A stretch of DNA of 64,000 bases. Origin: Rickettsiales bacterium. GTDB lineage: Bacteria; Pseudomonadota; Alphaproteobacteria; Rickettsiales; JABIRX01. The stretch spans positions 1,687-65,686 of the forward strand of contig JAWUXM010000013.1 of NCBI GenBank assembly GCA_034111325.1, written 5' to 3'. The position numbers and the translations under genes are program-made. Every line of letters starts with the position of its first letter. Position 1 is the stretch's first letter. The notes below the pieces were generated by a model. That model did no database searches. It worked only from the letters and a program-made list of their open reading frames with translations, and had not been told where the DNA came from. Positions 3,861 to 57,328 of the stretch are shown one piece after another.

Positions 3861-5030
3861 ATGATTGATTCTGTATTACCAGTATATAGCAGAGCTAAGT
3901 TAGAATTTATTAAAGGCAAAGGCGCCTATTTGTTCGACAAGGGCGGCAAAAAATATCTTGATTTTGCTGGTGGGATAGCTGTGAATTCTTTAGGCTACAG
4001 TCACCCCATCCTTACTAAAGCTCTGATTAAAGCTGCAAAAAAGCCATGGCATGTTTCCAACCTGTACCAAATCTCGGGGCAAACACAATTAGCTGATAAA
4101 TTAGTCGCCAACAGCTTTGCAGACTCTGTGTTCTTCTGTAATTCGGGTACTGAAGCTATTGAAGCAGGGATCAAATTTATTAGAAAATATTTTACCCAAA
4201 TCGGCAAACCAAATAAGAAAAATATAATTACTTTTGCAGGAGCTTTTCATGGCAGAACAATTGCTGCAATTTCTGCATCTGGTAATAAAAAATATCAAGA
4301 AGGCTTTGAGCCTTTATTGGAAGGCTTTATCAATATTGACGTACATGATTTTGACATTAGCAAGGTTAGAAAAGCGATAAATAAAGATACAGCAGCAATT
4401 TTAATTGAACCAATTCAGGGCGAAGGGGGAATTATTGCTTTTCCTGGCAAATTCTTAAAAGAATTAAGGAAGTTAGCTACTGAGAAAAAAATATTATTAT
4501 TTTTGGATGAAGTGCAATGCGGAATTGGCAGGACAGGTAAATTATTTTACCATCAATGGTTTGGCATAAAGCCAGATATTCTTGCTTCGGCAAAGGGCAT
4601 TGGCGGCGGGTTTCCTCTTGCTGCTTGTCTCATTAGTGAGGAGATTGGACAAACTATTAGTAAAGGCTCTCACGGTGGAACATATGGTGGAAATCCATTA
4701 GCTATGCAAGTTGGTAACGCTGTAATTGACACAGTGTTAAAAAAAGGTTTCTTGGAAAATGTCATTGTAACCAGCAAGTTCTTTAAGGAAGAGCTGCTTG
4801 CGCTACAAAAATCTCACCCAAAAATTATCGAAGAAGTTAGAGGAGAGGGCTTAATGTTGGGACTCAAACTTTCAATTGATTGCAGCATTCTTGCTGATAA
4901 ATTGAGAGTACAAGGTTTGTTGACTGTGCCTGCCGCTGGAAACGTAATTCGGTTCTTACCACCTTTGATCATCAAAGAAAAACAAGCCAAAGAAGCTATA
5001 AAAATTATTAAAAACACTCTCCATGGTTAA
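3861..5030 (+). CDS. argD: Acetylornithine aminotransferase (class III PLP aminotransferase)
   Basis: 389 aa with motifs FFCNSGTEA, DEVQCGIGRTG and SAKGIGGG (PLP lysine). Overlaps argF by 8 nt, so operon context supports the call. Confidence 0.88.
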   Translation: MIDSVLPVYSRAKLEFIKGKGAYLFDKGGKKYLDFAGGIAVNSLGYSHPILTKALIKAAKKPWHVSNLYQISGQTQLADKLVANSFADSVFFCNSGTEAIEAGIKFIRKYFTQIGKPNKKNIITFAGAFHGRTIAAISASGNKKYQEGFEPLLEGFINIDVHDFDISKVRKAINKDTAAILIEPIQGEGGIIAFPGKFLKELRKLATEKKILLFLDEVQCGIGRTGKLFYHQWFGIKPDILASAKGIGGGFPLAACLISEEIGQTISKGSHGGTYGGNPLAMQVGNAVIDTVLKKGFLENVIVTSKFFKEELLALQKSHPKIIEEVRGEGLMLGLKLSIDCSILADKLRVQGLLTVPAAGNVIRFLPPLIIKEKQAKEAIKIIKNTLHG

Positions 5031-5919
5031 GCATTTTATCGATATCAAGAGCCACTCCAAAAAAGATTTACAAACAATTTTGGATTTAGCCTTAAAGCTA
5101 AAAAAATCAGGCAAGCCAAGCAAGCAATTCTCTGGCAAAGAATTGGCGATGATTTTTCAGAAGAACTCAACACGAACCAGAGTTTCATTTGAAGTTGGTG
5201 CGAGGCAATTAGGCGGCAACGCAGTTGTGCTAAGCGGCGATGATATGCAGCTTGGCAGGGGCGAATCAATTGAACATACCGCAAAAATTCTCTCCCGCTA
5301 TGTTGATATGATTATGCTGCGGACGCATGATCATGAAGATATTTTAGCATTTGCTAAAAACTCAACAGTGCCAATTATTAACGGTTTAACTGTCTTTAAC
5401 CACCCTTGCCAAATTATGGCGGACATCATGACTTTCATGGAGCATAGAGGTTCTATTGCCGGTAAAAAAGTTGCATGGATTGGTGATGGCAATAATGTAT
5501 GTCATTCATGGATTGCTGCGGCAACGAAGCTTGGCTTTAGCCTAGATATTGCTACACCTAAAGATTACACACCAGATGCTGATCTGTTAAAATGGGCGCA
5601 GGATAATAAAGCAAAAATCACTTTAAGTCACGACGCAAACATCGCATCTGAAGGCGCTGATTTAGTTACTACAGATAGCTGGGCTTCTATGGGCGATAAA
5701 GACATTAAGAAGAGACTCAAAGCTTTTAAGAATTTCCAAGTTAATGATGAAGTAATGAGTAAGGCAAAAAAGAACGCATTATTCATGCATTGTTTGCCAG
5801 CGCATATTGGCGAAGAAGTTACGCAATCCGTGATTGATAGTAAACAATCGGTGATTTTTGATGAAGCGGAGAATCGCCTACATGCACAAAAAGCCATCAT
5901 GTGTTTTTTGGTGGGATAA
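5023..5919 (+). CDS. argF: Ornithine carbamoyltransferase
   Basis: Motifs STRTR, HPCQ, SMG (DSWASMG) and HCLPAH, with OTCase-like length (298 aa). Confidence 0.9.
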   Translation: MVKHFIDIKSHSKKDLQTILDLALKLKKSGKPSKQFSGKELAMIFQKNSTRTRVSFEVGARQLGGNAVVLSGDDMQLGRGESIEHTAKILSRYVDMIMLRTHDHEDILAFAKNSTVPIINGLTVFNHPCQIMADIMTFMEHRGSIAGKKVAWIGDGNNVCHSWIAAATKLGFSLDIATPKDYTPDADLLKWAQDNKAKITLSHDANIASEGADLVTTDSWASMGDKDIKKRLKAFKNFQVNDEVMSKAKKNALFMHCLPAHIGEEVTQSVIDSKQSVIFDEAENRLHAQKAIMCFLVG

Positions 5920-10469: not shown

Positions 10470-10541
10470 TCTGGTCTTTTTGAGTTCTTTTTTACCCCCC
10501 CTCTCCCTTAATCATGGTTGGGGTGAGAGTTTGTAGTATCA
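10470..10541. repeat. PE-1 left-end fragment fused to a PE-2 hairpin element
   Basis: TAATCTGGTCTTTTTGAGTTCTTTTTT matches the PE-1 left end, with the AA of the icd stop codon forming part of the match. It is followed by CCCTCTCCCTTAATCATGGTTGGGGTGAGAG (PE-2-like). Confidence 0.6.
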
Positions 10542-18898: not shown

Positions 18899-18948
18899 AA
18901 CCCTCACCGAACCTCTCCCTTATATAAGGGAGAGAGTTTCAACAGAAT
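18899..18948. repeat. PE-2 hairpin element (CTCTCCCTTA...TAAGGGAGAG)
   Basis: AACCCTCACCGAACCTCTCCCTTATATAAGGGAGAGAGTTTCAACAGAAT aligns to 40321-40375 and to the reverse complement of 43762-43820. Confidence 0.7.
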
Positions 18949-37699: not shown

Positions 37700-38650
37700 T
37701 CACAAAAGGTTTTTAATTTCTTTTAACGTATAACGCTGAGCTTTTAAAGTTTTGATTTTACGAGCAATTTCCAGCTCAACAGTAGAAAATAGCTGATAGC
37801 CATTTTCCGTAGTTTGTGCCGCTGTGATTAAACCTTCCTTTAACCAATAACGAATTGTCGAAATTGCCTCGCCAACTTCTGTGGCAAATTCCGCCATTTT
37901 GAACAAGGTTTCTTTTTGTGACAAAGATTCGCTCAAATTATCAATATATAAATCAAGTGATTTCTCTAACATATTTGCGATTAAAATTTGATAGTCGCCA
38001 ATCGCTCCGCCAAACTGATATTTGGCCACCGCTGCATCATATTCCCCTTGCTGATTTTGCTTGATAATCACTGGTGGATAACCCCCAGTAAGCAATATCA
38101 AATTCTGCACAAGCCTTGCGACTAGATGATTATCTTCAGCAAATGGCATGATAGAAAGTAAGCGACAATGCGCCTCGGATGCAAGCTCTACGGTCTCCAA
38201 TTCCCTAGCACTTTTTAGCCATGTACAAAATTCAAAAAGCAAATGCGGTATTTGCTCAGACTCTGGAAAAACAATCGGGGAATCAGTAATTTGTAACGGA
38301 AAGCCACGATAACCAACCTTGCCGCCATGATTTACTAATTGCTGAATTTGCAAAAGATTTGCCTCGCTAAAACTGGCTAATGGCTGCATAGCTAATTTCT
38401 GCACATAGCTAAAAGCTGCAATATGGCTGGTAATTGCGAGATGTTCCGTAATTGACTTGCCACCAATCGCTAAATTCTGCTGAAAAATCAATTTCACCTG
38501 CTGATATGTAAAGCTTCCACCTTCGAGCGCAACACTATTATAGGCAAAATCAATCGTCATTTTCTCCGCCAGCCTTTCCCTCACCGCCTTTGGAAAAGGA
38601 CGCAGCGCATCTAACTCCTGCTTCTTTTTTATTATATTTTCATAGCTCAT
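37700..38650 (-). CDS. Fic-fold protein with degenerate active-site motif fused to a C-terminal MerR-type HTH
   Basis: Fic-like scaffold with NSVALEG (a [ST]xxxE[GN] match), and MPFAEDNHLVARLVQNLILLTGGYPP in place of HPFxDGNGRxxRLL.N..L...GYPP. The C-terminus FKMAEFATEVGEAISTIRYWLKEGLI....NGYQLFS..EL.....IK.LK...YTLKEIK is MerR-like. Confidence 0.7.
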   Translation of the reverse strand: MSYENIIKKKQELDALRPFPKAVRERLAEKMTIDFAYNSVALEGGSFTYQQVKLIFQQNLAIGGKSITEHLAITSHIAAFSYVQKLAMQPLASFSEANLLQIQQLVNHGGKVGYRGFPLQITDSPIVFPESEQIPHLLFEFCTWLKSARELETVELASEAHCRLLSIMPFAEDNHLVARLVQNLILLTGGYPPVIIKQNQQGEYDAAVAKYQFGGAIGDYQILIANMLEKSLDLYIDNLSESLSQKETLFKMAEFATEVGEAISTIRYWLKEGLITAAQTTENGYQLFSTVELEIARKIKTLKAQRYTLKEIKNLL

Positions 38651-38739: not shown

Positions 38740-39603
38740 TTATTTGCGATGAATTTGAAAATCGTAATTCTCCCGAACTTTTAGGAAACTTGCAAAACGT
38801 GGCTTGTTGTTTTTGGTTTTGCCATAATGTTTATAGCTAATAATACTGCCGATCTTTGGCGGTTTTTGACGCTGCTCAACTGTAAATCCGCCACCAATTT
38901 TAAAGTTAATCCCCTCTTCATTTTCAACCATTAGAGAACCCATCATCCCTTGATATTTGCCTTTTCCTGCGACATAAGCCAAAACCCTCGCTTCCGCATC
39001 ATCGTAAGTTTTTAGTTTAAGAATATCATCATTACGTACCGCCTGATAAAGTGAGTCTTTGCGATGCAACATAAGCCCTTCGCCGCCCTTTTTGACGATA
39101 TCATTTAGATCTTTCATTAAGATTTTGTGGCTCGCAACTGTTTTTTGTTCAATCACCAATAAATATGGCGAATTCACCTCCTTTGCTATTTTTTGCATCG
39201 CAGCAAGCCTTTGCGCAAAGGATCCTGAATGTTGCGGCATATCAAAAAGCATCCAATGTACTTTGCGCCAACCTTCACTCGCAGCCTTCCGCCTTACAAT
39301 ACCCGATACTTCAGCGAATTTACCACGCCCAATCCACAACTCCCCCTCTAAATGTTCAGCGGGGAAATTTGCAACAAACCAGTCTGGCGCATTAAAAACA
39401 TTACCCCCTTTCGAAAGCAGATGTTTACCGTCCCAATAAGCACGCACGCCATCAAGTTTTTCGCTAACTAGATATTTTTGCAAATCAATTCCTTGATGAT
39501 AGATATTAGCCAACTGAATCGCTGGCGCCGACTGCTTAGCCGCAATAGCAGAAAAGCTGTGCGATATAAGGAGCAGTAACAAAGAAATCCGGAATTTTAA
39601 CAT
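38740..39603 (-). CDS. Minimal ATP-dependent DNA ligase with N-terminal signal peptide (Lig E-type)
   Basis: Signal-like N-terminus (LLLLLISHSFSAIAA). Nucleotidyltransferase motifs: I SEKLDGVRAY, III LEGELW, IV GGEGLMLH, V ILKLK, followed by an OB domain. At 287 aa it matches the Haemophilus/Neisseria-type small ligase architecture. Confidence 0.85.
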   Translation of the reverse strand: MLKFRISLLLLLISHSFSAIAAKQSAPAIQLANIYHQGIDLQKYLVSEKLDGVRAYWDGKHLLSKGGNVFNAPDWFVANFPAEHLEGELWIGRGKFAEVSGIVRRKAASEGWRKVHWMLFDMPQHSGSFAQRLAAMQKIAKEVNSPYLLVIEQKTVASHKILMKDLNDIVKKGGEGLMLHRKDSLYQAVRNDDILKLKTYDDAEARVLAYVAGKGKYQGMMGSLMVENEEGINFKIGGGFTVEQRQKPPKIGSIISYKHYGKTKNNKPRFASFLKVRENYDFQIHRK

Positions 39604-39684
39604 TTTATATTGAAATAAGCATTATTAACCACTATTACAACCTATGCTATAACAGCATTTTATTAATTTTTATTAAAAAGAACT

Positions 39685-40320: not shown

Positions 40321-40375
40321 AACCCTCACCTAACCTCTCCCCTATGATTAAGGGAGAGGGAGCTTTAACAGAATG
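40321..40375. repeat. PE-2 hairpin element
   Basis: AACCCTCACCTAACCTCTCCCCTATGATTAAGGGAGAGGGAGCTTTAACAGAATG is the near-exact reverse complement of 43762-43820. Confidence 0.75.
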
Positions 40376-40569: not shown

Positions 40570-41370
40570 TCAATTTACGCTTAGTTCGCAAATCACTGGC
40601 GTATGATCAGAAGGCTTCTCCCAAGCTCTTGGCTCCGCATCAACATCACTCGCAACTAATAAATCTGCGGCTTGTGGCGAAAGAAGGAGGTGATCAATAC
40701 GCATGCCTTTATTATAGTTAAAAGCACCTGCACGATAATCCCACCAAGAGAATTGCTGTTTTTGTGGATGCATAGCCCGATATGCGTCAACCAAACCACT
40801 ATTTAACAAAGATCGGAATTTCTTGCGCTCATCAATATGGAAGCAGATCGAACCGGCCATATTAACAGGGTCATAAACATCTATTTCATTAGGAGCGACA
40901 TTATAGTCACCACCAAAAATTACTATTTCATCATAAGTTAAAATTTCAGCGACATGTTTTTGCAAAGCGTCGAAAAAACGCATTTTATAAGCAAATTTAT
41001 CAGAACCAGCCTCTTGCCCATTTGGCACATAAATCGACGCGACACGTACCGCAGCGCCGCCAACTGAAATCACCGCCTCAACATAACGAGCCTGCTTTAC
41101 ATCGCCTAAATCTTCAAAATTTGGCAACCCTTCAATTACTTCATCAATTGGATGTTTAGATAAAATCGCGACGCCATTATAGGTTTTCTGCCCAAGAACT
41201 GCAACATTATAGCCCAAATCCTCAACCTCCATAAATGGGAAATTATCAGTGATACATTTTAACTCTTGCAAAAGCAGCACATCAGGCGAGGCAGATTTTA
41301 GCCAGCTCACTAAATGAGTAAGGCGAGATTTGACTGAATTAACGTTCCAAGTGGCGATTTTGAATGTCAT
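40570..41370 (-). CDS. xthA: Exodeoxyribonuclease III
   Basis: IATWNVNSVKSR, LLQELK, GDYNVAP and the C-terminal SDHTPV motif; 266 aa. Confidence 0.92.
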   Translation of the reverse strand: MTFKIATWNVNSVKSRLTHLVSWLKSASPDVLLLQELKCITDNFPFMEVEDLGYNVAVLGQKTYNGVAILSKHPIDEVIEGLPNFEDLGDVKQARYVEAVISVGGAAVRVASIYVPNGQEAGSDKFAYKMRFFDALQKHVAEILTYDEIVIFGGDYNVAPNEIDVYDPVNMAGSICFHIDERKKFRSLLNSGLVDAYRAMHPQKQQFSWWDYRAGAFNYNKGMRIDHLLLSPQAADLLVASDVDAEPRAWEKPSDHTPVICELSVN

Positions 41371-43730: not shown

Positions 43731-43950
43731 TTTTTTGGTGCCTTTTTGCACCCTTTTTAGCATTCCGTTAAAGCTCCCTCTCCCTTAATCATAAGGGAGA
43801 GGGCTGGGGTGAGGGTTTGCAGGGTGTTAGGGTGAGGATAATTAGATGGACTCACTCACGCGGAACATTCACTAAAAATCATCACAAAAATTCTACCAAA
43901 ACACCCTAGATTTATACCTTCAGAATCCAAGATCGAAAATCTGAAGATTT
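43724..43950. repeat. Composite: a PE-1 copy split by a nested PE-2 element
   Basis: The PE-1 left end (AATCTAGTTTTTTGGTGCCTTTTTGCACCCTTTTTAGCA, 43724-43762) overlaps the last codon and stop of nfu. PE-2 lies at 43762-43820. The PE-1 right half (GAACATTCACTAAAAATCATCACAAAAATTCT...AGATTT) resumes at about 43862. Confidence 0.7.
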
Positions 43951-44083
43951 GCAACATCATATTGATTTAATAGCACATTTGCAAAGCAGCAAAGTTTAAC
44001 AAAAACCCTCTCAAAATTTACGCACTAGAAACTATTTCGATTTAGTTAAAAGAAAACTTTGACAGTTTATCTTATTTTTTAGA

Positions 44084-45064
44084 TCAAACCAACTCTTTTA
44101 ATGTCTTAATATTCAAATTTCGTACTGAATAAACTTTATCCATTTTTTCTAAGAAAGGTCTAGTTTTATATACTTCATCAGCAACAAAAATATATGTCCC
44201 ATGATTGGTAATGGTTTTTGCCTTCTCTTCATTCAAATCTAACCCTATAGTAATTTCTATACTAACATCTATTTTACTTGTAAGGGATGTTTTTATAAAT
44301 TGCTTATATCTTTCCCTTAAAGTTCTTTTTGCCCCGATTCCGTATGTTTTTTTATCGAGCTCAAAGAAAAAATCATATTCCGTACTTTTATCATTCTTAT
44401 CATGGATTTTTGTAATATTTTTTATGCCAGATTTGTTTAAAACAGAAAGTATCCTATTTTCATAATTCGACCCTGAATCAGATTTGATCGACTGGTCAAT
44501 GGATTCATTAAATATTAACATAAAAATTTGATTTGATTCCAAACCCTTCTTTTTAAGTTTTATTGCCGTCTTAGAAATATCTGCAATGATGTCACATGCA
44601 TTTTGAGACATGAAATTCACCTCTCCATTATTCAGCTTTTCAAAAAACAGCAATGCTAGCAATGCGCCGCTTACTCTGGCATTATAGGACTTTAATGCAG
44701 ATATTTTATCATATTCAAGTGATAAGGGGTGTAATTCCAGCAATTTACCCAGAGCTATAGTTCCTGATATTTTTGCTTCCTGTAATAATAAATCTTTAAT
44801 TTGGTATAGCTTTAGGCTAAAATCTAGGAGGTTTATGTCACTAGAATTTGCCAACCTTAAACCTATCTCCTTGACATGCTCAAGTTTAGACTGTGATTTG
44901 ACAAATATCTTTTCCAAACTTTCTATTAAAGCAGTTGGATTGCTTTTTAGAAGGTTGATATTTTCAATTATTAACATTGCTTGCGTATTTGCAGGCTTAA
45001 GCTTTAATATACTCTCTGCGAAGAAAGCAAACATTAAGTTAATATCTAATTTTCGAGCTCTCAT
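44084..45064 (-). CDS. PD-(D/E)xK-like nuclease (type II restriction endonuclease-like C-terminal core, helical N-terminal domain)
   Basis: 326 aa. The C-terminal third has SNYENRILSVL, EYDFFFEL and IGAKRTLRERYKQ. This resembles the K-x-T-x-[KR]-[DE]-R-[WY]-[KR]-Q signature of EcoRII-C/SsoII/NgoMIV/Cfr10I-class enzymes. ATGA overlap with the upstream HNH gene. Fold call is by motif only. Confidence 0.45.
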   Translation of the reverse strand: MRARKLDINLMFAFFAESILKLKPANTQAMLIIENINLLKSNPTALIESLEKIFVKSQSKLEHVKEIGLRLANSSDINLLDFSLKLYQIKDLLLQEAKISGTIALGKLLELHPLSLEYDKISALKSYNARVSGALLALLFFEKLNNGEVNFMSQNACDIIADISKTAIKLKKKGLESNQIFMLIFNESIDQSIKSDSGSNYENRILSVLNKSGIKNITKIHDKNDKSTEYDFFFELDKKTYGIGAKRTLRERYKQFIKTSLTSKIDVSIEITIGLDLNEEKAKTITNHGTYIFVADEVYKTRPFLEKMDKVYSVRNLNIKTLKELV

Positions 45065-45840
45065 AATAACTCTTTGTTAAAATAATTCTCCAAATGGTAG
45101 GCTAAAAAATCAAGATTTGGCAAAAATCTTTCAGGCAAGGATATCTTCTTCCCCTCAATTGGTTTGAAATATTTTTTAAAATAGTCTTTTTGATAAGATT
45201 TTTTTAGGTAATCCGAAAACACAATTGCATAACTTCTATCAAACCCTATCAATCCTCTATCAAAGCACTTATCGTAAAATGCATCAAGGCAAATACCATT
45301 TTCAGGATTTAATCGATTATTTTCATCATCGCCCCAAGGCTTAATATGACTAGCTATTAGTACAGAAGGCATATCTATACCTGAAATGGCACATTTATAA
45401 TTGTAATTTGCAAGAATAATTTTTCTAAATAAATTTTGATTTACTCTTGTTTTTACTATTCTTTCTTTTGTTAAACCTTTGAAATCCTTAATGTCTAAAA
45501 AATTGCGTTCATACTTTTTTTCTAATGTTTTGTTTTCCAATTTAGCTAGTATTAATTCACTTTCATACATTAAGTTTTCTCTATTACTAATGTATCTATC
45601 AAAAATTGGCTGACATTGTTTCTTCCCTCCTTTTAATCCCTTAATACCCCTGTTTTGATGAAATGGGTCAACATGAGCAAAATTAGACAGCCTCATTGCA
45701 ATTGATGATGGTGTCCTATTTAACAAATTAGCCAACTCCACGACTTCTGGTGTGCGATGATCCATCTTACCAAAAGGTAACCTTAAGTAGAGATTGAAAG
45801 TAACAATATATTCATGGTCTTGCCATATCTTGTTTTGCAT
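45061..45840 (-). CDS. HNH_2-type (PF13391-like) endonuclease with an N-terminal wHTH-like domain
   Basis: 259 aa. The C-terminal half reads RVNQNLFRKIILANYNYKCAISG...LIASHIKPW....NRLNPENGICL...YDKCFDRGLIGFD, the classic HNH_2 pattern (R.GQ..FR..V...Y...C...G.....L.A.HI.P........NGL.L....H..FD.G...). Confidence 0.7.
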   Translation of the reverse strand: MQNKIWQDHEYIVTFNLYLRLPFGKMDHRTPEVVELANLLNRTPSSIAMRLSNFAHVDPFHQNRGIKGLKGGKKQCQPIFDRYISNRENLMYESELILAKLENKTLEKKYERNFLDIKDFKGLTKERIVKTRVNQNLFRKIILANYNYKCAISGIDMPSVLIASHIKPWGDDENNRLNPENGICLDAFYDKCFDRGLIGFDRSYAIVFSDYLKKSYQKDYFKKYFKPIEGKKISLPERFLPNLDFLAYHLENYFNKELL

Positions 45841-45848
45841 TCAGTTCT

Positions 45849-45995
45849 TTAATTTTCTTCATAAGTCATTTGTGCGTATTTATCCCACTCCGAAGAAAAA
45901 ACACACTCCCCAAAAACACCCTCAAATCCAAGGCGTATGCCTCCAACGCCTGCGAAAAGATCAATAAATTTAAGGTTTTGGTTATTATTTATCAT
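45849..45995 (-). pseudogene. 5' stub (48 codons) of a DNA (cytosine-5)-methyltransferase
   Basis: Hand-translated as [48 protein letters not shown]. It contains C5-MTase motif I (F.DLFAG.GG) and the following [13 protein letters not shown] segment, as in M.HhaI/M.HpaII N-termini. It stops before the catalytic PC motif IV, 8 nt before the HNH gene ATG. Confidence 0.78.
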
Positions 45996-46093
45996 TTATA
46001 ATCATTATTTCCTTTTTGCTAACAACATTTTTTAGTGTAAAGTGCTAGCCTTATTTAGCATTGTTTTTTTCTCTGAATTATAACTATATAAGA

Positions 46094-48719: not shown

Positions 48720-49979
48720 ATGTTCAAACTATATGCATTTTTAGTCACGATGCTCCAACCTTTTATCTATTTGCTGCTTAATTATCGCAGACGCATTGGC
48801 AAAGAGCATGCCACCCGATTTCCTGAGCGCTTAGGTATTGCCACAAAAAAACGCCCAAATGGCAAAATCATATGGTTTCATGCTGCCTCTGTTGGTGAGT
48901 TAAATGCAATCTTGCCACTAATTAATCACATGGCTAAGGATAATCACAAACTTAATATTTTAGTTACTACAGTTACGCTAACATCTGCTGCTATTGCGCA
49001 GAAAAACTTACCTAAAAATTCTTTTCATCAATTTGTACCGATCGATACAAACAAGGCTGTTAAGCGGTTTTTAGCACATTGGAAACCTGATTTAGCTATT
49101 TGGACAGAATCTGAATTATGGCCCAATTTAATTCATCGCACTCATAAGGTTTGTCGCTTAATTCTCCTCAATGCACGAATTTCTGATCGCTCATATAGTA
49201 AATGGTTAAAATATCGTTTTTTTGCTCAACGTATTTTGGCAGAATTTGACCTAATCCTACCACAGGAAAACACTGATTTAGAACGGCTCAAAAGCCTTGG
49301 TGCAAAAAACATTCAATATATTGGTAATTTAAAATATGATGCGCCTGCTCTTGCTTTTGATAAAAGTGAGTTGGCAAAATTAAAAGCGCAAATTGGCAAA
49401 AGACCAGTTTTTGTCGCAGCTAGCACGCATAGTGGCGAAGAAGTGGAAATAATTAAATGCCACAAGATATTGCAAGAAAAACACCCTAATTTACTGACAA
49501 TCATCGTCCCACGCCATAGTAAGCGCTCCGCAGAAATTGCAGAGGGATTATCAACTATCAATTTTGCTACACGCTCAATCAACGAGAAAATCACTGCCAA
49601 AACTGCAATATACTTGGCTGATACAATGGGTGAATTAGGGCTATTTTATAGCCTAGCAGATGTAAGCTTTGTCGGCGGTTCATTAATGGATGTTGGCGGT
49701 CATAACCCATTAGAGCCAGCAAGGTTTAAAAACGCCATTATCAGCGGCGCACATATCTTTAATTTCACGACAATTTACAATGAAATGCAGCAGGCCAAAG
49801 CGATACTCATTGCCAATGATTGTGCTGATCTTGCTAAGAAAATTGATCAATTACTCAATGATAAAGACAAAAGGGAGTTGCTTGGTAAAAATGCTTTTGC
49901 CTTAGCTGCCAGTAAAAAAGGTATTACTGAAAAAGCTGCAAGCATTATTAAAGAACGAATCGGTGGAATTGCGCAGTGA
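48720..49979 (+). CDS. waaA: 3-deoxy-D-manno-octulosonic acid (Kdo) transferase
   Basis: 419 aa. IWFHAASVGE, PRHSKR and GGSL...GGHNPLEPA motifs. Confidence 0.9.
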   Translation: MFKLYAFLVTMLQPFIYLLLNYRRRIGKEHATRFPERLGIATKKRPNGKIIWFHAASVGELNAILPLINHMAKDNHKLNILVTTVTLTSAAIAQKNLPKNSFHQFVPIDTNKAVKRFLAHWKPDLAIWTESELWPNLIHRTHKVCRLILLNARISDRSYSKWLKYRFFAQRILAEFDLILPQENTDLERLKSLGAKNIQYIGNLKYDAPALAFDKSELAKLKAQIGKRPVFVAASTHSGEEVEIIKCHKILQEKHPNLLTIIVPRHSKRSAEIAEGLSTINFATRSINEKITAKTAIYLADTMGELGLFYSLADVSFVGGSLMDVGGHNPLEPARFKNAIISGAHIFNFTTIYNEMQQAKAILIANDCADLAKKIDQLLNDKDKRELLGKNAFALAASKKGITEKAASIIKERIGGIAQ

Positions 49980-50745
49980 TCACTGCATGATCCGACGGGC
50001 GCTGCCAACCACGTGATTCCTGAATAACTTGTGTAGATTGTAGATTGTCACGTAAATTTGGCGTAATCCAAATATGATCTAAACGTCTTCCGCGAGCAGA
50101 TTTCTCCCAATCACGCGCCCTATAACTCCACCAGCTATAAAGCTTTTTATCATGATCTGTAAATTCACGATGCGTATCACACCAATCTCTGCTTGCTTTG
50201 AGCGCATTAAGCTTTTTCACCTCAATTGGCGTATGTGAGACGACATCAAGTAATTGCTTATGTGACCAGACATCATGCTCTAACGGCGCAATATTAAAAT
50301 CTCCCACGATAATCATTTTATCCTGTGGTGTTCTTGCAGAGAAAATCTGCGTCATTTCGTCAACAAAATCTAATTTATGAGCGAATTTTGGATTCAGTTT
50401 AGGGTCAGGCACATCGCCGCCGGCAGGAATATAGAAATTATGCACTTCTATATCATTAGGCAAAACTGCTGAAATATGGCGCTTATCACCCTTTTTTACC
50501 ATATCACGGGTTTGAATATTAGCTAAAGGAAGTTTAGAGAGAATTGCTACGCCATTATATGATTTTTCACCAGTAAAAGCGATGTAATCATAACCCATTT
50601 TTTTAATTTCTGCTTCAGGAAAGAATTGATCTTGCGTTTTGGTTTCTTGCAAGCAAATCACATCTGGTTGATGTTCTGCGGCAAGCTTTCCTAGTAAATC
50701 AATTCGTAAGCGTACTGAATTTATATTCCAAGAAACAAGTTTCAT
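49948..50745 (-). CDS. xth: Exodeoxyribonuclease III family nuclease (second paralogue)
   Basis: LVSWNINSVRLR, CLQETK, GDFNIAP, RLDHIW and SDHAV motifs; 265 aa. Confidence 0.88.
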   Translation of the reverse strand: MKLVSWNINSVRLRIDLLGKLAAEHQPDVICLQETKTQDQFFPEAEIKKMGYDYIAFTGEKSYNGVAILSKLPLANIQTRDMVKKGDKRHISAVLPNDIEVHNFYIPAGGDVPDPKLNPKFAHKLDFVDEMTQIFSARTPQDKMIIVGDFNIAPLEHDVWSHKQLLDVVSHTPIEVKKLNALKASRDWCDTHREFTDHDKKLYSWWSYRARDWEKSARGRRLDHIWITPNLRDNLQSTQVIQESRGWQRPSDHAVITAQFHRFVL

Positions 50746-56335: not shown

Positions 56336-57328
56336 CTATTTTTTGATATAACCCTTTTCCAAGAAATACCTTCTTGCGCCAGGGTGAAGAGGCGCTGTAT
56401 TTCCGCTGTACACTAGATCTTTTGGATTAAGTGCTTGGAAAACAGGATGCAATGTTTTAAAGTTATCAAAATTATCAAACACTGCTTTAACTACTTCATA
56501 AGCCACATCATCTGGCAAACTTGAAGTTGTACTTATTGTTGCTGTTACACCAAAAGACTTAATATCTTTCGGGTTACCAACATACATTCCTCCAGGAATG
56601 GTTGCGAAGCTATAATAGCTATTTTTATTCACAAGATCTGAAACTTCTTTTCCTGTTATGTTTATAAGCTTAGCTTTGCAAGAAGTTGTAACTTCTTGTA
56701 TAGCACCATTTGGATGCCCGGAAGCGTATATCATCGCATCTATCTTATTATCACAAACAGCCTGTGGTTGCTCAGAAGCTTTTAATTCAGAAGCAAGTTT
56801 AAAGCTATCTTTTGTCCAACCTTTTGCTGCCATTAACACTTCCATAGTCGCTCTCTGACCAGAACCAGGATTTCCAATATTAACTCTCTTACCTACTAAA
56901 TCATCAAGGGTTTTAATCCCTGCATCGGACCTAACTGCAATTGTAAAAACTTCTGTATGGAGAGAGAAAAGAGAGCGTAGGTTTTTACGAGGCTCCTGCC
57001 CTGCAAAAGGACCAGTACCTTCATATGCATGGTATTGCCAATCTGACTGCACTACAGCCATATCAAGATTGGACACCTCTAATGCATTAAGATTATAAAT
57101 TGAACCACCCGTAGATTCAACAGAGCATCTAATACCGTGATCTTTTCGAGAACGATTGACAAGGCGACAGATTGCGCCACCAGCTGGATAGTAAACCCCC
57201 GTTACACCACCAGTACCGATTGTAACAAATGTATCCTCAGCGTTACTCTGTGGCATAAAAGCCCCAAGGAAAAACGTAGCAACAAATGATGCCAAAGTTA
57301 AAGACTTAAAGTATTTCTTAACGCTCAT
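56336..57328 (-). CDS. TAXI-family TRAP transporter solute-binding subunit
   Basis: Signal peptide, then IGTGGVTGVYYPAGGAI and GGSIYNL motifs typical of TAXI (immunogenic protein family). Confidence 0.85.
   Translation of the reverse strand: MSVKKYFKSLTLASFVATFFLGAFMPQSNAEDTFVTIGTGGVTGVYYPAGGAICRLVNRSRKDHGIRCSVESTGGSIYNLNALEVSNLDMAVVQSDWQYHAYEGTGPFAGQEPRKNLRSLFSLHTEVFTIAVRSDAGIKTLDDLVGKRVNIGNPGSGQRATMEVLMAAKGWTKDSFKLASELKASEQPQAVCDNKIDAMIYASGHPNGAIQEVTTSCKAKLINITGKEVSDLVNKNSYYSFATIPGGMYVGNPKDIKSFGVTATISTTSSLPDDVAYEVVKAVFDNFDNFKTLHPVFQALNPKDLVYSGNTAPLHPGARRYFLEKGYIKK

Follow-up and report, generated by a model that had tools for sequence, protein, structure and literature searches.

An HNH_2 nuclease gene in the place of a C5 methyltransferase gene, next to a predicted Ecl18kI/EcoRII-type endonuclease gene, in a Rickettsiales bacterium

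Two coupled nuclease genes behind a methyltransferase stub

We analyzed a 64,000-nucleotide stretch of DNA from a Rickettsiales bacterium (GenBank assembly GCA_034111325.1, contig JAWUXM010000013.1, positions 1,687 to 65,686 of the forward strand; hereafter the window), in which a gene for an HNH_2-type nuclease (hereafter HNH) is followed on the minus strand by a second nuclease-like gene that we call X. As an earlier sequence-only reading had reported, a scan of open reading frames (ORFs) finds both genes uninterrupted, with products of 259 and 326 amino acids, and joined by an ATGA overlap between the TGA stop of HNH (45061-45063) and the ATG start of X (45062-45064). Directly upstream of HNH is a 48-codon stub of a C5 methyltransferase gene (methylase, for short), whose stop lies 8 nt ahead of the HNH start codon. 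The stub matches Pfam DNA_methylase over positions 1-41 only (E = 3e-14) and is 77-79% identical to residues 1-47 of the intact methylases that are linked to X elsewhere. Of the methylase motifs it retains only I and II, having lost the target-recognition domain as well as the catalytic motifs PCQ and ENV. The same reading held that no functional methyltransferase is linked to the pair, and we find no other C5 methyltransferase in the 64 kb. The window thus lacks the linked active cognate methyltransferase of a classical type II restriction-modification (R-M) system.

The assignment of the first protein to HNH_2 is borne out by Pfam (PF13391; 46.5 bits against a cut-off of 21, E = 3.3e-12), and PADLOC model PDLC04132 (“HNH”) matches it over its full length with 277 bits. 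The PADLOC system that combines such an HNH protein with an adjacent methyltransferase, which we take to be the one named HNH-type R-M, is incomplete here, as the methylase is a stub and X matches no PADLOC model. The nearest NCBIfam model is a modified-DNA-binding HNH restriction enzyme. Among solved structures, the nuclease domain matches VcaM4I by sequence (6yex; E = 8e-13) and both VcaM4I and TagI by fold (probability 1.0). In the family as a whole, H165, N178, N181, D190 and D194 do not vary; it comprises 3909 homologues with a mean column identity of 71% and extends across Bacteroidota, Helicobacter and Alphaproteobacteria. The N-terminal domain (residues 1-105) is modeled by AlphaFold2 as all-alpha, with a predicted local distance difference test score (pLDDT) of 87 and helices at residues 8-20, 31-40, 44-57, 70-83 and 87-101. 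It is highly conserved and returns weak homeodomain-like fold matches only; we presume that it reads DNA, and the protein contains no SRA, EVE or PUA reader. We also considered HNH as an analogue of the Vsr endonuclease and set this aside: it has no Vsr match, true Vsr genes occur alongside HNH genes (in three Bacteroidota loci and in Neisseria gonorrhoeae), and the methylase is destroyed in the window.

X is a predicted type II endonuclease of the Ecl18kI/EcoRII type. Taken singly, its sequence scores 17.4 bits against Pfam EcoRII-C, under the cut-off of 25, so the likeness to EcoRII-C and SsoII that had been proposed from motifs is sub-threshold at this level; a family profile built from 52 diverse homologues, however, finds R.Ecl18kI in the PDB at E = 2.5e-8. 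The profile pairs E202 (in SNYENRI), D231 (in EYDF) and K246 of X with E125, D160 and K182 of Ecl18kI, and R250-E251-R252 (in AKRTLRER) with R186-E187-R188. From established structures, we take this R-E-R to be the motif with which CCGG-family enzymes read CC:GG. The AlphaFold2 model of X (pLDDT 91.6) has Ecl18kI and EcoRII-C as its top Foldseek matches in the PDB (2fqz, 3hqg; probability 1.0), so that the fold search suggested by the sequence-only reading returns nuclease folds at probability 1.0 for both proteins. The catalytic and R-E-R columns are invariant in the 52 homologues, HNH-linked copies included. X therefore combines the fold, the catalytic E/D/(S)xK residues and the R-(D/E)-R four residues past the lysine that mark the CCGG family. 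Its N-terminal half of about 190 residues is helical and specific to the family. This family forms 147 clusters at 50% identity, neither Pfam nor PADLOC has a model for it, and the only annotation it carries is “hypothetical”; in a plasmid collection it is nearly absent, with one match on a Bacillus plasmid.

Table 1. Features of the locus, in window coordinates
Feature	Coordinates	Strand	Basis
Upstream leader, probable promoter region from the methylase operon	45996..46093	-	Partial alignment with DNA upstream of the L002 and L094 methylases; promoter role is a probable one
C5 methyltransferase stub, probable translated leader for HNH	45849..45995	-	Pfam DNA_methylase match; homology ends at codon 47
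HNH_2 nuclease gene	45061..45840	-	Pfam HNH_2, PADLOC PDLC04132; sits where methylase codons 48-334 were
All-alpha N-terminal domain of HNH (residues 1-105), presumed DNA reader	45526..45840	-	AlphaFold2 model; putative function
Predicted HNH beta-beta-alpha-Me nuclease domain (residues 124-217)	45190..45471	-	VcaM4I/TagI sequence and fold matches
X, predicted Ecl18kI/EcoRII-type PD-(D/E)XK endonuclease	44084..45064	-	Profile and fold; start coupled to HNH stop
X N-terminal helix (residues 3-22), methylase-dependent face lost	44999..45058	-	Comparison of homologues
X catalytic/recognition core (residues 183-326): E202, E229/D231, K246, R250-E251-R252	44087..44518	-	Alignment to Ecl18kI residues 111-253
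Hairpin with 12-nt arms, REP-like (REP, repetitive extragenic palindrome), outside the module proper	43776..43803	.	Copy of a dispersed motif

Replacement of the methylase gene and its recurrence

To place X in its usual context we surveyed 80 metagenome loci (labeled L with a number). In about 72 of the 80, an intact C5 methylase of 332 amino acids lies immediately upstream of X and overlaps it by about 29 nt; as a rule, then, X serves as the R gene in a simple M-R operon. The possibility that close homologues always occur with an intact methyltransferase describes about 97% of X homologues, but a recurrent variant in which a methylase stub is followed by HNH and X departs from it. The X-linked methylase matches the solved M.HhaI and Dcm about equally, which does not point to one specificity. 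Three loci encode M and X as a single chain (L127, 142-2085; L138, 3023-4987; L156, 1735-3705), which suggests that M and X cooperate physically. These fusion loci have one or two further C5 methylase genes downstream, and asymmetric or two-methylase systems are possible there. In three other loci a stop or frameshift interrupts X beside an intact methylase (L093, 3959-4978; L104, 4025-4978; L152, 3947-4975), the opposite route of decay, toward an orphan methylase.

Alignment of the window DNA with M-X loci shows homology from the methylase leader to codon 47, none over the HNH gene, and homology again from codon 7 of X. Because homology is lost only between these two points, the HNH gene has displaced methylase codons 48-334 together with the first six codons of X. 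The same layout is present in at least seven loci (the window, L008, L009, L010/L091, L117/L174-176 and L173), which span three X lineages and two divergent HNH types; the L117 allele, also represented by L174-176, was found in three samples. The methylase remnant differs from locus to locus. It comprises residues 1-33 in L008, 1-47 in the window and 1-74 in L117, and it continues through residue 112 in L009, where a 1-nt frameshift at the HNH ATG ends it; in L010 a decayed trace of motif IV is all that is left. ATGA coupling between HNH and X is kept in the window, L008, L010 and L117, and the two genes are 19 nt apart in L009. The stub of L009 is identical to an intact methylase at the amino acid level (100%) and 85% identical at the nucleotide level, and since its rate of nonsynonymous substitution (dN) is thus 0, this methylase was functional until recently.

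The HNH-linked X proteins are polyphyletic, with one clade of four, L008 apart from it and L117 in a distant clade. The HNH of L117 is divergent in sequence; the X of L009 is closest to methylase-linked X genes, and in both L009 and L008 the stub and X are “local”. For these reasons repeated replacement or cassette-like exchange fits better than a single ancient accident. In our literature search we found no account of a methylation-sensitive restriction endonuclease that was kept and selected after replacement of its methylase, and neither the recurrence of such a replacement nor the methylase-dependent helix signature given below was found described. The parts are each of a known kind, namely an Ecl18kI-like restriction endonuclease, an HNH_2 restriction nuclease and a C5 methylase remnant.

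Both nuclease genes are under strong purifying selection, and therefore neither is decaying. Among HNH-linked loci the ratio of nonsynonymous to synonymous substitution rates (dN/dS) is 0.05-0.09 for HNH and 0.05-0.15 for X, with synonymous substitution (dS) saturated; for methylase-linked X pairs it is 0.02-0.16. The close pair L010/L091, where any methylase is absent, gives 0.05 and 0.15 for the two genes. These values and the recurrence in at least seven loci contradict one of the three explanations that the sequence-only reading thought possible, a decaying locus with accidentally open frames.

One part of X changes with its genomic context. In the 72 methylase-linked loci, residues F12, Y13, L16, K17 and K21 of X are invariant at 99-100%, and their spacing (i, i+1, i+4, i+5, i+9) puts them on one face of a helix. 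Y13 is replaced by A, N or C in all seven HNH-linked X proteins, usually together with K17, and the remainder is unchanged; the window protein has A13 and E17. Among 203 X homologues the Y...K pair is kept in 197, and the other six are exactly the HNH-linked ones (Fisher's exact test for signature against context, P = 3e-10). One of these six, P0019, whose context was not known beforehand, was flagged by the helix signature, and its 77 nt of upstream sequence encode the C-terminus of an HNH. This pattern among homologues leads us to infer that the helix face probably acts together with the methylase; the natural M-X fusions lend weight to this. On the HNH side, the X-linked proteins share only T7 and a clade-specific A192C, and we regard convergent change in them as unconvincing.

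A second survey covered the neighborhood of HNH in 80 reference genomes, in none of which X adjoins HNH. About 72% of these loci have no C5 methylase near HNH. An intact, motif-complete methylase lies beside HNH in about 11 loci, often overlapping the HNH start, and in about 11 a methylase stub or fragment alone lies directly upstream. In six Bacteroidota loci (L013, L015, L018, L026, L054 and L075) a short ORF for the N-terminus of a C5 methylase ends at the HNH start (at about 5000); these stubs belong to a methylase subfamily other than that of the window. L013 holds both N- and C-terminal methylase fragments, which points to an internal deletion. The genes downstream of HNH are defense genes (McrB-like with EVE, Z1, AIPR, DrmE-like, prokaryotic Argonaute (pAgo) and Eco57I-like), so the HNH family is defense-linked and found in varied defense islands. 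Directly after Bacteroidota HNH genes we observed McrB-like (one with an EVE domain), pAgo (Piwi), Z1 and AIPR genes (L024, 3088-4788; L058, 888-3395; L026, 4704-6986; L051, 5828-8380; L052, 5778-7616). Tandem pairs of HNH_2 genes occur in L041 (4208-5765) and L059 (100-1810).

A member of the family is also found between pheS and pheT of N. gonorrhoeae (L171; NZ_CP119142.1, 369359-380096), where the order is pheS, vsr, a methylase stub, an ORF, HNH and pheT (the segment of interest at 3956-5747). The gonococcal stub is 133 amino acids long, 63% identical to the X-linked methylase and broken just before motif IV; the ORF that follows encodes 113 and the HNH 249 amino acids. Residues 4-254 of the window HNH align with this protein at 39.8% identity (tblastn, E = 4e-55), that is, over its full length, and the L117 HNH does so at 44% (E = 5e-70). 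The gonococcal protein cluster has 372 member sequences and is conserved in gonococci. With 112-133 amino acids compared with 362 in N. lactamica, the gonococcal methylase was regarded as a remnant in a preprint of 2019 (bioRxiv 10.1101/630434). In 2026 the ngoAXIII operon was reported to consist of a complete restriction gene and a split methylase and to be conserved in 47 genomes; the same paper reports that most gonococcal CCGG is under-methylated, that within a subset of cells unmethylated CCGG of the genome is cut by the restriction enzyme, and that its overexpression is lethal (PMC13321361). Judged by gene order, R.NgoAXIII is evidently the gonococcal HNH ORF, since no other ORF from the split methylase to pheT is complete. 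N. meningitidis has NmeDI at this pheS-pheT site, which consists of vsr, M.NmeDI and a restriction endonuclease of 351 amino acids. We considered X as a homologue of R.NmeDI, whose gene overlaps that of its methylase by nine codons as in X systems. This is unsupported: none of the ten cluster representatives of about 350 amino acids comes from Neisseria, and RCCGGY is undepleted (ratios of 1.02 and 1.15), which counts against it.

The islet has a G+C content of 0.28-0.32 over 44000-45500, compared with 0.40-0.43 in the flanking nfu and purK genes, and is AT-rich as had been noted. The “repeat scars” reported next to it proved partly real. The spacer between nfu and X holds a perfect hairpin with 12-nt arms, a copy of a dispersed REP-like motif that occurs 6 times in the window against 0.08 expected, but no direct repeats or target duplications beyond chance-length matches border the islet. 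The underlying 12-mer, TAAGGGAGAGGG, is found at 10499-10510, 18911-18936, 40349-40360 and 43776-43803, two of these occurrences being tight inverted pairs that form hairpins in intergenic spacers. A promoter and terminator consensus scan of the islet gave counts no better than shuffled sequence. An nfu flank is shared only with L002/L003 (nfu protein 56% identical to that of the window): nfu (7032-7604 in L002, 43143-43730 in the window) is convergent to, and abuts, both the M-X locus of L002 and the HNH-X locus of the window. This common flank could be a shared insertion hotspot or reflect old residency. Elsewhere in the window we observed a small ATP-dependent DNA ligase (ligase A_M plus OB_2) beside a Fic/MerR-type gene (about 38743-39621 and 37703-38650, both on the minus strand), two Exo_endo_phos (xth-like) paralogues (40570-41370 and 49951-50745) and a CagX/VirB9-family match on one ORF.

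A proposed route from an M-R operon to two nucleases

We tentatively favor, with slightly less than even confidence, the explanation that the locus is a methylase-less operon of two site-specific nucleases derived from an M-R operon. The ancestor would have been a classical type II operon with a C5 methyltransferase gene M followed by the Ecl18kI/EcoRII-like X and a recognition site of the CC(W/N)GG or CCGG kind. An HNH_2 restriction gene of the family of gonococcal R.NgoAXIII would then have overwritten this operon from codon 48 of M to codon 6 of X. Transcription would probably still come from the old methylase promoter, and the translated 48-codon stub may pass ribosomes to HNH 8 nt on, from which they would reach X through the ATGA. 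Both products would be active site-specific nucleases directed against incoming DNA. The host may be spared by a marked depletion of candidate sites, by low or conditional expression, by methylation from an unlinked gene of the same genome, which has been reported for ngoAXIII with its broken methylase, or by some combination of these; a linked methylase would not be the means.

Counts of recognition sites bear on this proposal. In the window, CCWGG occurs 15 times against 58.9 expected and CCGG 19 times against 51.2 (0.37). Pooled flanks of M-X hosts have a CCWGG ratio of 0.44, compared with 0.73 in the control set, and a CCSGG ratio of 0.92; GGCC is also low (0.36 versus 0.57). The depletion in M-X host flanks favors CCWGG as the probable site of X and M. 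CCGG is more strongly depleted in HNH-X than in M-X hosts (P = 0.003), a result driven by the window, and the CCGG depletion in the window is suggestive only as to HNH cutting unmethylated CCGG. Wide spacing of sites, following the logic of type IIE/IIF enzymes, is unsupported as the sole explanation for self-sparing, given that CCWGG sites are clustered: three lie within 500 bp at 56379-56865 and another two are 477 bp apart. Because sites remain in the window, self-sparing needs one or more of low or conditional expression, methylation in trans and an altered X.

Several observations weigh against our proposal. The 15 CCWGG and 19 CCGG sites that remain should make an unrestrained X lethal, and no protecting methylase was found in the 64 kb. 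Bacteroidota hosts of HNH are barely depleted in CCGG (0.87). The window HNH is only 40% identical to the gonococcal protein; the equation of R.NgoAXIII with the HNH ORF is drawn from gene order; and the report on ngoAXIII calls the two gonococcal enzymes paralogous, yet we find a single HNH copy in that chromosome. In subfamily A the motif has Tyr189-Asp190 where its last histidine usually stands, and the closest solved HNH domains, those of VcaM4I and TagI, come from modification-dependent enzymes.

This last point leads to an alternative that we judge somewhat unlikely, in which HNH is a type IV-like nuclease of the PcaRCII/VcaM4I/TagI kind that attacks 5-methylcytosine (5mC), including the mark of the lost methylase. 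Together with X, the locus would then restrict the methylated as well as the unmethylated form of its site, and HNH would be found on methylase remains because it persists only where that methylase has been destroyed. The nearest solved domains depend on 5mC or 5-hydroxymethylcytosine, and the nearest NCBIfam model points the same way. PcaRCII, which shares the described architecture, restricts 5mC and conflicts with a Dcm-like methylase (PMC8989522), and modification-dependent enzymes beside frameshifted methylases have been reported elsewhere (PMC11037411). The lack of a nearby methylase in most of the HNH loci surveyed, with about half of the adjacent ones being stubs or fragments, is also in keeping with such a conflict. 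Yet in several Bacteroidota operons the HNH start is overlapped by a C5 methylase that is intact and has all its motifs, N. gonorrhoeae maintains its HNH beside many active 5mC methylases, the reported substrate of this HNH is unmethylated CCGG, and the survival of an unprotected X becomes harder to explain. An extension that we regard as unlikely treats the stub, HNH and X as a methylase-free module in which the two nucleases act as one unit, possibly docked through a re-purposed X helix, with HNH reading the methylated site so that both epigenetic states are restricted and the host spared by site depletion or by a mark other than 5mC. A change of partner, with X normally bound to the methylase through its N-terminal helix and here forming a hetero-oligomer with HNH, would make X harmless by itself and give the complex an activity and a self/non-self rule different from those of either protein alone. 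The constraint on one helix face in 197 of 197 methylase-linked X proteins and its absence from all seven HNH-linked ones, the single-chain fusions, the ATGA coupling kept in four loci and the full constraint on the rest of X speak for this. We nevertheless think it quite unlikely: the helix of HNH-linked copies looks relaxed and diverse with no new motif fixed, X-linked HNH proteins share few changes, the HNH family overwhelmingly occurs without X, and in L009 a 19-nt gap separates the genes.

The remaining explanations concern the origin of the layout. HNH could be a selfish, homing-like gene that copies itself into C5 methyltransferase genes and leaves X behind, and methylase stubs directly upstream of HNH in three phyla, from at least three methylase subfamilies, speak for this. 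In L009 and L008 a foreign HNH is combined with a local stub and X, which suggests that insertion has happened repeatedly, and the stubs of L117 and N. gonorrhoeae both end just before motif IV. The junctions vary, however (residues 33, 47, 74 and 112), unlike those of homing, and on this ground we reject a homing-endonuclease reading. Most family members are without a methylase remnant, X is kept and selected in all seven cases, and the neighbors are defense genes rather than genes of mobile elements, which makes a selfish gene improbable overall. Decay of an R-M system, leaving frames that are inactive or open by chance, would account for the destroyed methylase, and X is indeed split in a few methylase-linked loci; given the low dN/dS with saturated dS, the retention of all invariant catalytic residues, and a layout shared by at least seven loci with one allele in three samples, it is very improbable.

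The general assumption is that a type II restriction enzyme kills its host once the methylase is missing. At this locus, a type II restriction endonuclease that is apparently intact has been selected across diverged lineages after a second nuclease overwrote its methylase gene, and the same scar of a methylase stub plus HNH recurs in Bacteroidota as well as in ngoAXIII of gonococci. If our proposal is true, there is a recurrent evolutionary route from R-M operons to methylase-less nuclease modules, and a natural system for learning how cells tolerate or exploit unprotected restriction enzymes. The N-terminal helix of X would then be a methylase-dependent surface of a restriction endonuclease and hint at M-R contact in a type IIP-like system. 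The X family, an uncharacterized restriction endonuclease family of about 147 clusters at 50% identity, and the very large HNH family are targets for annotation.

Comparison with known systems

With Ecl18kI/SsoII, PspGI and EcoRII, X has in common the fold, the E...D...SxK active site and the K-x3-R-E-R reader of CC:GG, and most X homologues share an operon with a C5 methylase, as in Ecl18kI/EcoRII-type systems. Unlike these enzymes, X has its own helical N-terminus of about 190 residues and scores below the threshold of Pfam EcoRII-C; it is without the downstream acidic residue at the position of Ecl18kI E195. Unlike Ecl18kI-type R-M systems, the X of the window has no methylase. VcaM4I and TagI, modification-dependent enzymes of PUA/SRA-HNH composition, are the nearest solved relatives of the HNH nuclease domain. 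Their readers are beta-rich EVE/SRA domains, whereas the N-terminus of the window HNH is all-alpha and without a confident structural match.

PcaRCII of Pectobacterium carotovorum is methylation-dependent, restricts 5mC in CCWGG/CCNGG and is in conflict with a Dcm-like methylase (PMC8989522). By its description it consists of a helical N-terminal DNA-binding domain (a three-helix bundle) and a VcaM4I/TagI-like HNH, as is predicted for the window HNH, and the pair PcaRCI/PcaRCII embodies the concept that nuclease and methylase cannot both be active. However, the genes of that pair are unlinked and their conflict is solved by promoter methylation, not by gene replacement; the 120 best matches related to the gonococcal HNH include no Pectobacterium protein. 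The DpnI and DpnII cassettes of Streptococcus pneumoniae are alternative gene sets at one locus (PMC2993543). Like M-X and HNH-X, they share flank homology, one set has a methylase and a restriction endonuclease and the other is methylase-less, and they appear exchangeable by recombination. They differ in that the modification is adenine methylation at GATC and in that the methylase-less Dpn cassette drops the methylation-sensitive endonuclease, whereas X is present in both forms here.

In the ngoAXIII operon, as in the window, a gene of the same HNH family lies directly downstream of a truncated C5 methylase; the methylase is non-functional, the nuclease is still conserved throughout the species, and it reportedly cuts unmethylated sites, with a cost to fitness. 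The gonococcal operon has a Vsr gene and no second endonuclease, whereas the window retains and selects the original restriction endonuclease X.

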